A stretch of DNA of 64,000 nucleotides from Candidatus Hydrogenedentota bacterium (GCA_026415215.1 JAOAHN010000026.1:9326-73325); one strand, 5' to 3'. Shown: positions 32,908-41,485, counted from the first letter of the stretch. Made by a program: numbers and translations. The notes: generated by a model not told the origin, from the sequence alone.

Positions 32908-32945
32908 TTTTGGTATTACTATTTATAATTTTAGTAATACCAAAA
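32908..32945 (+). promoter_or_regulatory. Perfect 14-bp inverted repeat operator with NikR-type geometry, overlapping a -10 box
   Basis: TTTTGGTATTACTA-[TTTATAATTT]-TAGTAATACCAAAA. The core is GTATTA (32913-18), 16 nt, TAATAC (32935-40), with TATAAT at 32924-29. It ends 31 nt upstream of ATG 32977 (AAGGAG RBS). Confidence 0.7.
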
Positions 32946-32976
32946 TGATTAACTCATCTAAGAAAGGAGATGTACA

Positions 32977-33945
32977 ATGAAAAAACAAGGTTTTACTCTA
33001 ATCGAGTTATTGGTCGTCATAGCTATCATCGGCATCCTCGCAGCAATACTATTGCCTGCCCTTGCCCGTGCGAGAGAAGCGGCTCGAAGATCGAGTTGTC
33101 AAAATAACCTAAAACAATTCGGCATAGTATTCAAAATGTATGCGAATGAAGCAAAAGGCGAGAGATTCCCACCCTTACAACCATTTGCCAATCCTAACGG
33201 GGCTCCTTTATTTGCATCTCCTGACCCAGAAGGCTTATACCCAGAATATCTTACAGATATGAATATTTCTAAATGCCCCTCTGACACTGGAGTAGATGCA
33301 GGTGGGCAATTCGTTGCGGCAAGAATACCAGATGGCTCTTTAGAGGACCATATCAAAGTGGCAGAAGAAAATGGGGACAGGTTAAGCCAAAGATATTTCA
33401 GAGCTGCCATGTTAGGAAGATCCTACTGGTATCATGGATTTGCTATGATGAATGTAGAAGAGTTCTATGGGATTTGGAATGCCACAGGAACTCTTACTCC
33501 GATTGAAATATACCCTCCCAATACAATAATAGGTGTAAATCCTGTTACCGCTCCGGTTCAAAGAAAAAACTTTGATGATGATCTACCTGTTACCACAAAG
33601 TTACCCTGGACTGCAATTCTCGGCAAAGGATTTGCATCCCTAAACACATGCGCTCGGCTAAGAGAAGGTATAGAGAGATTCGCCATAACCGACATAAATA
33701 ATCCCTCTGCTTCCGCAAAAGCTCAAAGCGAAATAGCTATTATGTTCGATACTTTCGGACATCCTGCTCACTCTGCATCTACTGCAGGAGGTGTGGTTTT
33801 TAATCACATGCCCGGTGGTTGTAATGTTCTATACATGGACGGACATGTCGAATTTATAAGATACCCAACAAAATTCCCGATTATATCTGACCAACAAAAC
33901 AATAATGGCATACCGCGCCAAGTAGGACATTTCGGACTGCAATAG
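32977..33945 (+). CDS. DUF1559 (SBP_bac_10) prepilin-type N-terminal cleavage/methylation protein with H-X9-DG motif
   Basis: KKQG|[42 protein letters not shown]; C-terminal [16 protein letters not shown]. Confidence 0.93.
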
Positions 33946-33948
33946 TAT

Positions 33949-34803
33949 ATGCGTCACTTCTTAACTCTCTATATATATCTCCTCTTGTTTTTAGCAGTGC
34001 TGGGATTAGGCGGGAGGGTCTTTTGTGAGAATTCTCCCGCCATCCCAAATTACAAAGTAGCGGTTGGTTCCTCTTCTATATACTCAGCCGTAAAGGAGTT
34101 TGTAGATGCTAAACACATAACAGACATCATAATCCCTCCTGATTTGTGTCCTGGTCACTTCGATTTAAAACCCGGGGATGTAGAAAAGTTCTTAGAGAGC
34201 GACTTGATTATCTTGCACAACTGGCAAAAAGATCTGCCAGCTATAAAAAGCCTTTTAAGAGTTGCCAATCCTAACTCTGAGAAATTAGCTTGGGTTCCAA
34301 TCCAGGGTAGTTGGATGCTCCCCCAGAATTATGTAAAGGGATTAGAGGCAATAAGTAAGCTTTTGATGGAGAAAAAAATCATATCCAAGGAAACAGGTGA
34401 AGAAATATTGGAAAGAAGAAAGAGGGAAATATTAAGGTTTTCTGAAGATATAAAAAATAAAATATCTGCATTAAAACCTGAAAATATTTATGTGATTTCA
34501 TCTTCCTTCCAAAGTGAATTTCTAAGATGGTTGGGGTTCAATGTCGTTGGAGAATATTCAAGGGCAGAGGAGATCACCTTAAAAACCTGGGGTGACCTAT
34601 TGAAAACCGGAAAGGAAAAAGATGTAAAATTAATAGTTGAGAACCTTCAAAGTGGTGAACTTCAAACTGTTAAGGCTCTGGCGAACGACCTAAATGCCAA
34701 ATCAGTGGTATTGTCTAACTTTCCTATGGCCGAAACAGAAGACAAATCTTGGGAAGATAGTGTCCTTCGTAATGTAAATATTATAATTAATGCATTGAGA
34801 TAA
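33949..34803 (+). CDS. Metal ABC transporter substrate-binding protein (ZnuA/TroA fold)
   Basis: Signal peptide and PPDLCPGHFDLKPGD (the DPH-loop equivalent); precedes the ATPase and permease genes. Confidence 0.8.
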   Translation: MRHFLTLYIYLLLFLAVLGLGGRVFCENSPAIPNYKVAVGSSSIYSAVKEFVDAKHITDIIIPPDLCPGHFDLKPGDVEKFLESDLIILHNWQKDLPAIKSLLRVANPNSEKLAWVPIQGSWMLPQNYVKGLEAISKLLMEKKIISKETGEEILERRKREILRFSEDIKNKISALKPENIYVISSSFQSEFLRWLGFNVVGEYSRAEEITLKTWGDLLKTGKEKDVKLIVENLQSGELQTVKALANDLNAKSVVLSNFPMAETEDKSWEDSVLRNVNIIINALR

Positions 34804-34857
34804 GATATCAAAGCTAATAAACAAGCCTTTCCATACAAATTAGAAAGAGTTGACGGC

Positions 34858-35622
34858 GTGGACTCTCCAATAATAGAAATAAAGGATTTAGTAACTACAT
34901 ACTACGGGAATACTGTAATAAAAGGACTTTCTACTAACTTTTATCACAACCAATTTACGGTAATTCTGGGTCCTAACGGTTCTGGGAAAACTACACTATT
35001 GAAATCAATTTTAGGGCTATGCAATATAGCAAGTGGAGAAGTCAAAGTATTTGGAGAAAAAGTCCATAAATGGAAATATAAAATAAGAAGAAGAATAGCG
35101 TATGTATCTCAAGTAGAAAATATTGATCCTCGTTTACCAATCACAATAGAGGAAAGTGTATTGTTAGGGCGAGCTGGTGTAAGAGGTTTAGGAAAACCCT
35201 ATACCAAGAACGATAGAGAATTAGTTACCCAAATACTTGAAAGATTGGGCATAGCACACCTGAGAGAAAAGCCTATTGGAAAAGTCTCCGGAGGAGAGAG
35301 ACAAAAAGCAAGTATAGCAAGAGCCCTTGTTCAGGAAGCTCCCATAATTTTGATGGACGAACCAACAGCATCTTTAGACCCTAACGCTCAGCTTGAGATA
35401 CTATCAATAATTAATAACTTGAAAGAACTCCATAAAAATACAACTATATATGTAACCCATGAATTAGCAGAACTCCCAGAAAAGTGTGACAGAATAATCA
35501 TGTTAAAAGATGGAAACATATGGAGAGATGGTAACCCAGAGGAACTTCTCAATGAAGATTTACTCTTGGAGCTATATGGAGGCTCTGATTTCTGCTGTCG
35601 AGATAGGTTAAAGCATCATTAA
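34858..35622 (+). CDS. Metal ABC transporter ATP-binding protein (ZnuC-like)
   Basis: GPNGSGKT, VSGGERQK, LMDEPT and H-loop VTHE; GTG start. Confidence 0.92.
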   Translation: MDSPIIEIKDLVTTYYGNTVIKGLSTNFYHNQFTVILGPNGSGKTTLLKSILGLCNIASGEVKVFGEKVHKWKYKIRRRIAYVSQVENIDPRLPITIEESVLLGRAGVRGLGKPYTKNDRELVTQILERLGIAHLREKPIGKVSGGERQKASIARALVQEAPIILMDEPTASLDPNAQLEILSIINNLKELHKNTTIYVTHELAELPEKCDRIIMLKDGNIWRDGNPEELLNEDLLLELYGGSDFCCRDRLKHH

Positions 35623-35651
35623 ATTTAGTTAAGAGAGAAAACAAAAATAGA

Positions 35652-36485
35652 GTGTTTAGTTTCTTAGAAATACCAGGGTATCTAATAAAACCATTAACTG
35701 CAGGTTTTTTAACAGGGATTTCCTGCAGTCTTGTGGGTGTATTTATAGTAACTACTCATTTATCTTTCTTAGGTATATGTATTGCTCATTCGGCATTTAC
35801 CGGAGCACTTTTAGGTATCTGGCTAAACTTTAATCCTACCTTAGGCGCTTTAATTTTCAGTCTGATTGCTTCAGCAATAGTCGGTCCCCTTGCAGACAGA
35901 GGTGAACTAAGTCCAGATACTTCTACGGGGATTGTATTTTCTACTATGTTAGGGCTCGCCTTTCTTATAATCGGACTAATCCCAGGTTCTAAGTCATCTG
36001 CTATGAATCTTTTCTGGGGAAATATACTTACTGTCTCATATACAGATATATTACTCCTTGCGATAGTAACAATTTTCCTAATAGGAATTTTTACATTCCT
36101 ATATAAAGAGATTCAGGCAGTCCTATGTCATAGAAATATAGCAATTGCAGTAGGAATTCCATCAGCCTTAATCTTTTACCTAATGCTCATAGCAACTGGT
36201 GTATCGATTGCGGTTTCTCTCCAAACAGTTGGAGGGCTATTAATTTATAGTCTACTTCTCAATCCCTCCGCTTCTGCTTACCAACTCACTTATAAATTCA
36301 AGACCATGATTTTATTATCTATATCATTTGGGGTCATGTCTTGCTGGGGAGGTATATGGGTATCCTACAAATTTAACTTACCAACTGGGGCTTGCATTAT
36401 TCTCACCTCTTCTATCATATTCATATTGTGTTCTATATTCTCTCCTAAAAAAGATAAGAAATTTAAGGATCAAAATAATGATTGA
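35652..36485 (+). CDS. Metal ABC transporter permease (ZnuB/ABC-3 family)
   Basis: SLVGVFIV...IAHSAFTG, LFWGNILTV and VGGLLIYSLLLNP; about 8 TM segments. Confidence 0.92.
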   Translation: MFSFLEIPGYLIKPLTAGFLTGISCSLVGVFIVTTHLSFLGICIAHSAFTGALLGIWLNFNPTLGALIFSLIASAIVGPLADRGELSPDTSTGIVFSTMLGLAFLIIGLIPGSKSSAMNLFWGNILTVSYTDILLLAIVTIFLIGIFTFLYKEIQAVLCHRNIAIAVGIPSALIFYLMLIATGVSIAVSLQTVGGLLIYSLLLNPSASAYQLTYKFKTMILLSISFGVMSCWGGIWVSYKFNLPTGACIILTSSIIFILCSIFSPKKDKKFKDQNND

Positions 36486-39072: not shown

Positions 39073-40233
39073 ATGTTGATTCTTGCAGACGAAAATATCC
39101 CCTATGTAAAAGAAGCTTTTAGGGAATTCGGAGAAGTTATTACAATCTCTGGGAGAGAAATCACAAGAGAAAATACAAGAGATGCAGATGTTTTACTCGT
39201 CCGTTCAATAACAAAAGTAAATAAAGAGTTACTCGAAGGAAGCAAAGTAAAATTTGTAGGTACCGCTACTATTGGCTTTGACCATATTGATGTCGAATTT
39301 CTAAAAAGAAGTGAAATTAAATTTGCAAGTGCCCCAGGTTCTAATGCAAACAGTGTAGCAGAATATGTAATATCAGGCTTACTATACTTAGAAAAAAATT
39401 TCGGCTACTCCCTAAAATACAAGAAAATAGGCATCCTCGGAGTCGGTAATGTTGGCTCAAAAGTCCTTAAAAAGGTGATTTCTCTGGGTATTATCCCTAT
39501 TCTTTATGACCCGCCCCTTGCGGAAAAAATAGATAAACCTATATTCAATACATTGGAAGAAATTCACGATTGCGACATAATAACTCTCCATGTGCCACTT
39601 GAGAAAGGAGGAAGATATCCAACATACCATATGATAAACTCAGATTTCTTTTACAGTCTAAAAAGAAAAGTAGTGTTTATTAACACTTCCAGAGGTGGAG
39701 TAGTAGCAACAAAATCGTTGATAGAGGCAATAAAAAAAGGAATAGTTACTCACTCTATAGTAGATGTTTGGGAAAATGAACCCAATATCAATTTAGAATT
39801 ACTCAATTTAGTAACTCTTGCTACTCCCCACATCGCGGGATATTCTTTTGATGGCAAAGTCAATGGAACATACCAACTTTACCATGCTTTCTGTCAATAC
39901 ATTGGCAAACAACCAACTTGGGATTTCAAATCCTGTTTACCCACTCCCGATATTAAGCTTATAGATTTAGATACAAACAAACCTTACTGGCTTCATGACT
40001 CAGTCCACAAAATCTATCCAATATTCGAAGACGATAAGAGATTAAGAGAAATTTCAGCAAAATCCGAAGACCAAAGAGGAAAATTTTTTGACCAACTCCG
40101 AAAAAATTACCCTATAAGAAGGGAATTTCACAACACTACAATAAGGTTATCTTCCAAGGATGCTAACTGGGAAATTATAAATGTATTAGAAGGAATAGGG
40201 TTTAAAGTCGCGAGGACTCAGAATAATGCTTAG
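39073..40233 (+). CDS. pdxB: 4-phosphoerythronate dehydrogenase
   Basis: ILADENIPY, LVRSITKVN, GTATIGFDH, APGSNANSVAEY and HIAGYS, plus the C-terminal PdxB dimerisation motif FDQLRKNYPIRREF. Confidence 0.9.
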   Translation: MLILADENIPYVKEAFREFGEVITISGREITRENTRDADVLLVRSITKVNKELLEGSKVKFVGTATIGFDHIDVEFLKRSEIKFASAPGSNANSVAEYVISGLLYLEKNFGYSLKYKKIGILGVGNVGSKVLKKVISLGIIPILYDPPLAEKIDKPIFNTLEEIHDCDIITLHVPLEKGGRYPTYHMINSDFFYSLKRKVVFINTSRGGVVATKSLIEAIKKGIVTHSIVDVWENEPNINLELLNLVTLATPHIAGYSFDGKVNGTYQLYHAFCQYIGKQPTWDFKSCLPTPDIKLIDLDTNKPYWLHDSVHKIYPIFEDDKRLREISAKSEDQRGKFFDQLRKNYPIRREFHNTTIRLSSKDANWEIINVLEGIGFKVARTQNNA

Positions 40234-41485
40234 ATGTGAGGCAACATCAGGTTTTCTAAATTCTCAACAAGTTTACGAGTTCGTTCAAAAAGCGGTGAGC
40301 TGTGCAGATCTAAATGGGAAGAAAGTGGTTATCATAATACCAGACCATACTCGTAGCATGCCGATGCCTATTATGTTTAGAGCTTTGGCGGATGCCCTTC
40401 TACCAATATCTAAAAAAACAGACATAATAATAGCCCTTGGCACACATCCTCCGATGAGCGAAAGCATGATAAACAAACTATTGGGAATATCTGAAAAAGA
40501 AAGGTACGGAAAATACGCTAAAATTAACATATTCAACCATGCTTGGCAAGACCCAAACATCCTATATCCGCTATGCACACTTTCAGAAGAGAAAGTATTT
40601 GAATTTTCTGAAGGCTTACTAAAACAAGAAGTAGTGGTCCAGATAAATCGAAAAATATTTGATTACGATTCCATACTAATAGTAGGTCCAGTGTTCCCAC
40701 ACGAAGTTGTAGGTTTCAGTGGTGGGAATAAATATTTCTTTCCAGGGATTTCCGGTCCTGATTTCCTAAACCTGTTTCATTGGTTAGGTGCCCTTATTAC
40801 CAACATTAAGATAAATGGGGTCAAAAATACTCCAGTTAGAAGGCTCATTGACTACGCAGCTTCAAAGATAGATAGGGAGAAATGGTGCTTCGCATTAAAT
40901 GTAGAACAGGATAAAACAAGAGCTATATACTTTGGAACTCCCGAAGAAGCATGGAGTGAAGCAGTAGACCTCGCCATGAAAACACATATCATTTACAAAC
41001 CACGTACTTACCATTCGGTACTTGCTGAAGCACCCCTAATGTATGATGAAATTTGGACAGCTGGAAAATGTATGTACAAGTTAGAACCAGTTGTAGCTGA
41101 TGGAGGAGAACTAATAATATATGGGCCTCATATAAAAGAAATCAGTTTTACCCACGGTCACTTAATAAGGAAAATAGGCTACCATGTTCGTGATTATTTC
41201 TTAGCTCAAATGGAAAAATTTAAGGATATCCCAGGAGGGATCCTCGCTCACTCAACTCATGTTAAAGGAATAGGAACTTACATAAATGGAGTTGAAAATC
41301 CAAGAGTAAATGTCACTCTTGCTACAAGTATCCCTAAAGAAATATGCGAAGAAGTAAACCTCGGTTATCGAGACCCAACTAAAATAAATATAGATGAGTG
41401 GAAAAATAGAGAGGACGAGGGCATACTTTTCGTGCCCCACGCAGGAGAGATGTTATACAGGGTGAGTCCAATTCCTCCAAATTGA
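40226..41485 (+). CDS. LarA-family (nickel-pincer nucleotide-dependent) 2-hydroxyacid racemase/epimerase
   Basis: PDHTR, ALGTH, PHEVVGFSGGNKYFFPG (catalytic His and cofactor-linked Lys equivalents), FH (Ni-ligand His equivalent) and KCMYK. Confidence 0.87.
   Translation: MLRCEATSGFLNSQQVYEFVQKAVSCADLNGKKVVIIIPDHTRSMPMPIMFRALADALLPISKKTDIIIALGTHPPMSESMINKLLGISEKERYGKYAKINIFNHAWQDPNILYPLCTLSEEKVFEFSEGLLKQEVVVQINRKIFDYDSILIVGPVFPHEVVGFSGGNKYFFPGISGPDFLNLFHWLGALITNIKINGVKNTPVRRLIDYAASKIDREKWCFALNVEQDKTRAIYFGTPEEAWSEAVDLAMKTHIIYKPRTYHSVLAEAPLMYDEIWTAGKCMYKLEPVVADGGELIIYGPHIKEISFTHGHLIRKIGYHVRDYFLAQMEKFKDIPGGILAHSTHVKGIGTYINGVENPRVNVTLATSIPKEICEEVNLGYRDPTKINIDEWKNREDEGILFVPHAGEMLYRVSPIPPN

Follow-up and report, generated by a model that had tools for sequence, protein, structure and literature searches.

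A DUF1559 prepilin-type protein subfamily is linked by a NikR-type operator and gene order to predicted nickel import in three bacterial phyla

We analysed a stretch of 64,000 nucleotides (nt) from Candidatus Hydrogenedentota bacterium (hereafter the window; all positions are counted from its first letter) and examined a gene for a prepilin-type protein of the DUF1559/H-X9-DG family that heads the operon of a metal ATP-binding cassette (ABC) transporter. Comparison of sequences and gene neighbourhoods strongly supports the prediction that this gene belongs to the core of a NikR-type regulon, usually as the first gene of an importer operon. It is highly probable that the gene of the window belongs to the NikR regulon and to the operon, and probable that its protein acts in nickel acquisition; that the protein binds nickel directly and relays it is a tentative proposal. 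The best overall explanation, which we favour with moderate confidence, is a nickel-regulated DUF1559 envelope protein that captures nickel for import.

The predicted operator upstream of the DUF1559 gene is a perfect 14-nt inverted repeat, with the core GTATTAC-N14-GTAATAC at 32913-32940 and a TATAAT hexamer in the spacer (32924-32929). The published delta-proteobacterial NikR signal is an inverted repeat of 27–28 bp, GTGTTAC-N13/14-GTAACAC (PMC545781), and the box in the window has the same architecture, with one difference per half-site. The sequence features of a NikR regulon are thus present: two 7-bp half-sites with an N14 spacer upstream of the operon, and a NikR gene, in a single copy (contig C75, 624-1028), in the source genome. 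This genome (phylum Hydrogenedentota, 3.33 Mb, 38% GC, 93.6% complete) contains one other copy of the exact box, located between a ybaB-like gene and a NuoE/F-like (hydrogenase diaphorase-type) gene that is truncated at the end of its contig. NikR control of a Fe-only hydrogenase has been predicted in Desulfovibrio desulfuricans (Rodionov et al. 2004, PMC545781).

The box is attached to the DUF1559 gene rather than to the transporter genes. In ABC-linked loci it always lies 5' of the DUF1559 gene and never between this gene and that of the binding protein; the proposal of a preliminary description of the locus that the gene belongs to a metal-regulated unit is supported. Six fetched ABC loci have sufficient upstream DNA and no DUF1559 gene; in four of them (L012, L014, L015, and L029) the box, with 1–2 mismatches, is found right in front of the binding protein gene. 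Most of the 20 fetched orthologs that are located away from the importer, either unlinked to it or in a genome that lacks it, carry the box just upstream. Overall, a box with at most two mismatches precedes 31 of 37 related prepilin genes, for a chance estimate of ~0.6% per gene, and the distance from the end of the box to the Gly-Phe-Thr codons is 34–82 nt in 30 genes and 140 nt in the 31st. The nikR gene itself adjoins the box-bearing DUF1559 gene in Hydrogenedentota (L032, divergent; L042/L079, downstream) and in Planctomycetota (L069 and L087).

Five plus-strand genes follow the operator (Table 1). Only 3 nt separate the stop codon of the DUF1559 gene from the ATG of the gene encoding the substrate-binding protein, and a consensus scan revealed no plus-strand promoter-like or terminator-like site at this junction; terminator-like matches within open reading frames (ORFs) were at the level expected by chance (6 versus 3.4 ± 2.0). 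The later gaps measure 54 nt (binding protein/ATPase) and 29 nt (ATPase/permease), and the permease and methyltransferase genes overlap by 8 nt. The preliminary description had placed the DUF1559 gene directly behind an operator and 3 nt before the binding protein gene, and the ORFs, the profile matches and the perfect inverted repeat bear this out. It was also right that the gene heads a metal ABC operon, but it overlooked the methyltransferase gene. We count this gene as the fifth of the operon because its position after the permease gene is conserved within the genus, in at least five other genomes (L067, L080, L081, L083, and L089).

The binding protein gene is the only one of the ZnuA family in the source genome. 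At least the first His ligand position is preserved in its product, whose scores remain far under the equivalog cut-offs (NF007091 ZnuA, 15.5 bits for a cut-off of 268; MntC, 18.4 bits for a cut-off of 500). The similarity to ZnuABC zinc importers reaches only the family level (PF01297 and PF00950), and the predicted operator is NikR-type, not Zur-type.

To determine how often the arrangement occurs, homologs of the binding protein (E ≤ 1e-10) were collected from 55 of 135 genomes of the phylum, and their positions were combined with those of DUF1559 orthologs and with 30 fetched loci. In three of the 55 genomes a contig end is too close for the arrangement to be judged. Of the 52 Hydrogenedentota genomes that can be assessed, 43 have a same-strand DUF1559 ortholog as the immediate upstream neighbour of the binding protein gene, and these 43 come from five GTDB families; the adjacency is therefore not unique to the source genome. 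With 27 DUF1559 matches in this genome, some neighbourhoods are bound to look suggestive, and one of ~25 paralogs could have come to lie beside a transporter operon by chance. We regard this as extremely improbable: the adjacency is kept across five families, the operator moves together with the gene, and about 29 loci combining box and prepilin gene were found where ~0.002 are expected (see below). We conclude that chance adjacency is ruled out by these comparative counts.

Among the products of the operon, conservation is highest for the DUF1559 protein. Its identity between members of the genus is 78–85%, compared with 45–52% for the binding protein, 54–57% for the ATPase and 73–77% for the permease over the aligned part; across families it is 57–73%, and the binding protein falls to 28–35%. 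The closest paralogs of the protein in its own genome share only 39–51% identity with it. Because orthologs are far closer than same-genome paralogs, we assign the protein to an orthologous subfamily of its own, which is mostly present in single copy and strongly constrained.

To search beyond the phylum, we scanned 185,579 species genomes with the composite pattern GTATTAC-N13/14-GTAAYAC-N34-64-GGNTTYACNYTNATHGARYT, which combines box and prepilin start. The scan returned 29 loci for an estimate of ~0.002 by chance: 17 of Hydrogenedentota type, 11 from Planctomycetota, including the cultured Paludisphaera soli JC670, and one from Chthonomonadales (Armatimonadota). When the 10 clearest of the 12 prepilin proteins from outside Hydrogenedentota were scanned with profiles, all matched PF07596, nine with scores exceeding the cut-off and six along the entire model. 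In Paludisphaera soli, the box upstream of the DUF1559 gene is the only exact copy in an 8-Mb genome, in which the backwards control pattern does not occur and nikR is present once. The partners of the DUF1559 gene differ between loci (Table 1). A DUF1559 gene at the head of a metal transporter operon, which the preliminary description had noted for the window, is found again, with other ABC classes, in Planctomycetota and Armatimonadota, so that it occurs with at least four transporter arrangements. In one planctomycetal locus (L069) a radical-SAM gene lies inside a predicted nickel-regulated operon with a chelate-type importer, and its product might make a nickel-binding small molecule. Four of the 17 Hydrogenedentota-type loci carry other taxonomic labels (e.g. 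Nitrospirales, Nitrospiraceae), although their proteins are 68–84% identical to that of the window. The records L081, L090, and L091, metagenome-assembled genomes (MAGs) labelled Nitrospirales/Nitrospiraceae, look mislabelled or look like mixed bins; L081 has the complete operon in the same order.

Table 1. Coordinates of the features discussed. Positions without a prefix refer to the window; C, contig of the source genome; L, locus.
Feature	Position	Strand	Basis or remark
NikR-type operator (predicted), perfect 14-nt inverted repeat	32908-32945		arms 32908-32921/32932-32945
Shine-Dalgarno AAGGAG	32964-32969	+	7 nt ahead of the DUF1559 ATG; read from sequence
DUF1559/H-X9-DG prepilin-type protein, 322 amino acids	32977-33945	+	Pfam/NCBIfam profile matches
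Subfamily-specific insert, residues ~105-170	33289-33486	+	ortholog/paralog comparison
H-X10-DG-H motif (H277...D288-G289-H290)	33805-33846	+	family signature, not copy-specific
Subfamily-specific C-terminal tail (D305 ... GIPRQVGH318FGLQ)	33889-33942	+	ortholog/paralog comparison
ZnuA/TroA-family (cluster A-I) substrate-binding protein, 284 amino acids	33949-34803	+	PF01297, 56.7 bits
ABC transporter ATPase	34858-35622	+	PF00005, 113.7 bits
ABC-3 family permease	35652-36485	+	PF00950, 192.6 bits
S-adenosylmethionine (SAM)-dependent methyltransferase (Methyltransf_11/UbiE-like), 225 amino acids	36478-37155	+	start overlaps the permease stop
Protein of 327 amino acids	31865-32848		directly upstream of the operator
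LarA-type protein	40226-41485	+	Lar_N, 73 bits
Second exact box	C63:1375-1402		
DUF1559 paralog, rhamnosidase gene next	C35:77222-78859		same strand as neighbour
DUF1559 paralog, lyase-like/FG-GAP gene next	C65:322-1728		same strand as neighbour
DUF1559 paralog, sulfatase gene next	C95:2808-4220		same strand as neighbour
DUF1559 paralog, FG-GAP protein gene next	C93:16254-17531		same strand as neighbour
nikR, box, DUF1559, radical-SAM (BATS domain), Peripla_BP_2, FecCD, ABC ATPase	L069, JAGHCE010000128.1, 2806-8000		Planctomycetota MAG
box, DUF1559, FmdE, unknown, ABC ATPase	L084		Chthonomonadales
box, DUF1559, FmdE	L078, L085, L094		Planctomycetota
box, DUF1559, ABC ATPase, two ABC-2/DUF3526 permeases	L093/L097, NZ_JAALJI010000017.1 (L097:2951-7685)		Paludisphaera soli JC670
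FmdE gene	L033:7024-7731		
FmdE gene	L038:5254-5955	-	
FmdE gene	L051:2477-3211	-	
FmdE gene	L049:2608-3270		
FmdE gene	L078:2760-3284		
FmdE gene	L084:2757-3215		
FmdE gene	L085:3179-3697		
FmdE gene	L094:5638-6765		

Genes for FmdE-domain proteins lie just downstream of box-linked DUF1559 genes in about 11 loci of three phyla. In six stand-alone Hydrogenedentota loci the next gene, 13–50 nt downstream, encodes an FmdE-domain protein (PF02663) of 210–245 amino acids, and in L077, where the DUF1559 ORF is shortened, such a gene follows ~540 nt downstream of it. A signal peptide is present in several of these proteins, and those of L038 and L051 have a long, strongly His-rich N-terminus (e.g. 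HPHHSHNDGQGHDHGE). They may be periplasmic nickel relays or scavengers. The literature that we searched contains neither a nickel link for the FmdE family nor a report connecting FmdE with NikR.

These genes also bear on a different role for the DUF1559 protein, that of a dedicated pseudopilin of a type II secretion system-like machine, which would not bind nickel itself and under nickel limitation would expel an FmdE-domain protein or a small nickelophore. The signal peptides and His-rich N-termini of some FmdE-domain proteins fit such a role, as do the six secretin genes of the source genome and the radical-SAM gene between the DUF1559 and importer genes of L069, which could make a small chelator. 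Yet a tblastn search found no FmdE homolog in the source genome, where the DUF1559 protein is nevertheless 78–85% identical to its relatives in the genus. A large, highly conserved, subfamily-specific globular domain would not be expected of a mere piston subunit, and the match to GspG (TIGR01710) covers only the N-terminal helix and scores 36.3 bits against an equivalog cut-off of 88.85. We therefore consider this explanation unlikely.

The sequence of the DUF1559 protein combines a canonical prepilin start with a divergent globular domain. Its N-terminus matches PF07963 N_methyl (36.2 bits, cut-off 21.2) and TIGR02532 (36.3 bits, cut-off 16.3), and carries a class III signal in which the leader MKKQG is followed by the mature F6-T-L-I-E10 (FTLIELLVV...). 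The H-X9-DG model TIGR04294 is matched with 29.0 bits (cut-off 19), the spacing in this protein being X10 (H-X10-DG-H). The match to PF07596/DUF1559 ('SBP_bac_10') reaches 44.2 bits for a cut-off of 23.3 and is short, aligning protein residues 31-66 with model positions 2-35 of 268. PF07596 is matched over its full model by planctomycetal box-linked relatives, and the globular domain of the window protein is a divergent Hydrogenedentota type.

To identify residues that distinguish the subfamily, conservation was compared between 64 orthologs and 24 paralogs of the source genome. Two segments stand out. An insert contains D107, R116, H125, D134, R148, W151, H153, E162, Y164, and N168, which are kept in orthologs and absent from paralogs, and the C-terminal tail is set apart from paralogs by D305, R314, and H318. 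Judged from this comparison, H125, H153, H318, D107, D134, and E162 are candidate ligand residues.

The Pfam name SBP_bac_10, and a 2009 paper that terms the family solute-binding proteins, suggest another possibility: the DUF1559 protein could be the primary binding protein of the ABC importer, anchored by its pilin helix, with the ZnuA-like protein secondary or degenerate. In Sulfolobus, ABC transporters work with binding proteins that carry class III signal peptides (PMC3047682), and the Paludisphaera soli operon lacks a canonical binding protein. However, this operon encodes ABC-2 permeases, which usually belong to exporters, and the operon of the window keeps a complete ZnuA-family binding protein. 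The assignment to the solute-binding family is itself limited in the window protein by the short alignment to PF07596, and a search of the PDB with the confident AlphaFold2 model (pLDDT 87.6, pTM 0.85) found no periplasmic-binding-protein fold, with no match below an E of 3. We judge this arrangement distinctly unlikely.

The regulatory link could also be separated from uptake, if the protein were an envelope or adhesion pilin tied to nickel status (e.g. to remodel the envelope or attach to particles that bear nickel), or if the box answered to another metal through a different regulator. The neighbours of other DUF1559 paralogs are relevant here. Among 10 co-directional downstream neighbours examined in the source genome we found no transporter; they encode a PASTA protein, an alpha-L-rhamnosidase, MnmA, a rhamnogalacturonan-lyase-like/FG-GAP protein, PdxA, a second FG-GAP protein, a sulfatase, and three proteins without a Pfam match. 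Because paralogs adjoin rhamnosidase, lyase-like/FG-GAP and sulfatase genes, the DUF1559 family is not intrinsically a transporter accessory. An involvement of the box-linked subfamily in metal handling is indicated, against a purely structural pilin, by its partners in three phyla, which are repeatedly metal-related (four ABC transporter types, FmdE-domain proteins and nikR); moreover, nikR adjoins the box in four loci and the geometry of the box matches published NikR sites. Co-regulation without a role in uptake is, in our view, quite unlikely. The neighbours of four paralogs (Table 1) hint that different DUF1559 paralogs are paired with different glycan-processing functions. A riboswitch search in the upstream regions of 20 paralogs yielded two tRNAs and no riboswitch; the nickel-linked copy is the only DUF1559 gene of the source genome with a recognisable sensor.

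Several observations weigh against nickel capture by the DUF1559 protein on behalf of the importer. In nine of the 52 genomes the importer and the DUF1559 ortholog lie apart, and many genomes hold an ortholog without a ZnuA/ABC-3 importer, which means that a direct handshake with the ZnuA-like binding protein is not obligatory. Orthologs with 53–70% identity and a matching box are among those found without an importer, which indicates a role independent of the ZnuA/ABC-3 system; the earlier claim that the protein serves the ABC importer is qualified accordingly. No box is recognisable at some orthologs (L026, L037, L039, L040, and L048), and binding of NikR to the box is predicted from its geometry and gene neighbourhood. 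The protein is not His-rich: with 7 His and 4 Cys among 322 residues, the preliminary description of its C-terminus as His/Cys/Asp-rich could not be maintained, and the GHPAH stretch is not conserved among orthologs. The H-X9-DG-H cluster had likewise been suggested as a place to look for a metal site. We rejected it as a copy-specific metal site, as the motif (HxPGGxNVLY[ML]DGH or a close variant) is common to all 25 paralogs carrying it in the source genome, and H277, D288, and H290 are equally conserved in paralogs and orthologs. As the motif is family-wide and GHPAH unconserved, neither marks the copy in the window as a metal binder. Finally, a Foldseek search of the AlphaFold2 model against the PDB gave a best E of 3.1, and in a PDB profile search the matches, to type IV pilins and GspG, were confined to residues 2-75; because the globular domain has no solved structural relative, its fold gives no hint of ligand binding.

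With these points taken into account, we still favour the capture of nickel for import by the DUF1559 protein, which would proceed as follows. When nickel is plentiful, Ni-NikR would occupy the box, occlude the -10 region and block transcription; when nickel is scarce, the operon would be expressed. The prepilin peptidase, encoded by a single gene in the source genome, would cleave the DUF1559 protein after G5, and the hydrophobic N-terminal helix would then serve as an inner-membrane anchor or allow entry into a type IV filament or pseudopilus passing one of the six secretins. The globular domain of ~260 residues may bind Ni(II) or a nickel complex, and the captured nickel would be handed toward whichever inner-membrane importer the organism has, in the source organism the ZnuA-type ABC system. 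As conservation of the protein exceeds that of every transporter component and the box is kept where the importer is missing, the protein may recognise something invariant, namely its ligand and its assembly machine, and not one particular binding protein. TonB-dependent receptors (PF00593 barrel) were found in none of the 10 genus genomes examined nor in the source genome, and are absent from 92 of 135 phylum genomes. Since the genus has no such receptors, capture outside the inner membrane may fall to the DUF1559 protein.

Two further genes of the window lie near the operon. Directly upstream of the operator, a gene encodes a protein of 327 amino acids that matches no Pfam family and has one hydrophobic segment at its N-terminus; an ORF of 287–304 amino acids, compared by size and position only, occupies the equivalent place in same-genus loci, beside ruvA/ruvB-like genes. 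A gene for a LarA-type protein follows the importer operon at a distance of 4 kb, in the same orientation. The LarA family uses a nickel-pincer cofactor, and this protein is a likely consumer of the imported nickel.

Several known systems resemble parts of this arrangement. NikR-repressed nik(MN)QO operons with NikK/NikL (PMC545781) have a repeat of 27–28 bp with 7-bp half-sites and an N13/14 spacer ahead of a nickel importer operon, encode accessory extracytoplasmic proteins of unclear mechanism together with the transporter, and sometimes have nikR adjacent. In the window, however, the half-site reads GTATTAC where the published one reads GTGTTAC, the importer is of the ZnuA/ABC-3 type (cluster A-I) and not ECF-type (energy-coupling factor) or NikABCDE, and the accessory is a prepilin-type DUF1559 protein, which is not listed among the NikR-regulated genes of that study (PMC545781). 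The chaperones ZinT and AztD of ZnuABC-type importers are also extracytoplasmic, are co-regulated with or often encoded beside a cluster A-I importer, and are thought to pass captured metal to the binding protein. Profile scans of the window protein returned only pilin and H-X9-DG models, and no fold match was obtained, so that no kinship with ZinT or AztD was detected in sequence or fold; in addition, the window protein has a pilin-type N-terminus, is possibly filament-borne or membrane-anchored instead of soluble, and would be under a NikR-type regulator instead of Zur.

Further parallels involve pilin-like proteins or fibres. In the archaeal bindosome (PMC3047682), the sugar-binding proteins of Sulfolobus are ligand-handling envelope proteins with a prepilin-type signal, encoded with an ABC importer and processed or assembled like type IV filaments; the source of the window is by contrast a diderm bacterium, its globular domain has no match to a binding-protein fold, and a canonical binding protein is also encoded in the operon. 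Modular type IV pilins such as PilB of Streptococcus sanguinis (PMC8179133) fuse a pilin module to a large functional domain that gives the filament specific binding, but PilB-type modules are recognisable adhesin domains (e.g. vWA) whose genes belong to pilus operons and lack metal control. The 'fishing' fibres of planctomycetes, proposed to take up macromolecules (Boedeker et al. 2017, PMC5394234), would be pilus-like and would capture substrates in organisms with few or no TonB-dependent or Sus-type receptors. The hypothesis put forward there concerns polysaccharides and names no fibre subunit, whereas here a specific DUF1559 subfamily is tied, through a predicted regulator, to a small ligand.

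DUF1559, whose function is unknown, is the largest paralog family in planctomycetes: Planctopirus limnophila has 68 copies, of which two are essential (PMC10632474). Several poorly known phyla are likewise rich in DUF1559 proteins, and a first-pass search gave 18–160 DUF1559-like candidates per genome in Hydrogenedentota. In the literature that we searched, where DUF1559 is described as a family of unknown function, no report links it, or pseudopilins and type IV pilins, to nickel or metal uptake. A generalisation from our findings, which we consider doubtful, is that DUF1559/H-X9-DG proteins act as capture subunits, each specific for a ligand, in a TonB-independent uptake route based on type IV filaments, standing in for TonB-dependent receptors in Planctomycetota, Hydrogenedentota, and their allies, with the NikR-controlled subfamily specific for nickel. 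Under such a scheme, nickel would be delivered to ZnuA/ABC-3, FecCD or ABC-2 importers, sometimes via a secreted FmdE relay, and other paralogs, among them those beside the rhamnosidase, sulfatase and lyase-like genes, would capture other substrates.

As judged from sequence and gene order, the subfamily has a strong and broad predicted link to nickel through regulation and synteny; our proposal for what the protein does biochemically is a hypothesis. A subfamily that in three phyla is associated with a predicted nickel repressor site, nickel-type partners and importers of several kinds provides a defined candidate ligand for the DUF1559 family, and the cultured Paludisphaera soli JC670 offers an experimentally tractable counterpart. 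If nickel capture by the DUF1559 protein is true, it would describe how diderm bacteria with few or no TonB-dependent receptors gather a scarce nutrient, and a 'zinc' ABC system would have to be re-annotated as a nickel importer.

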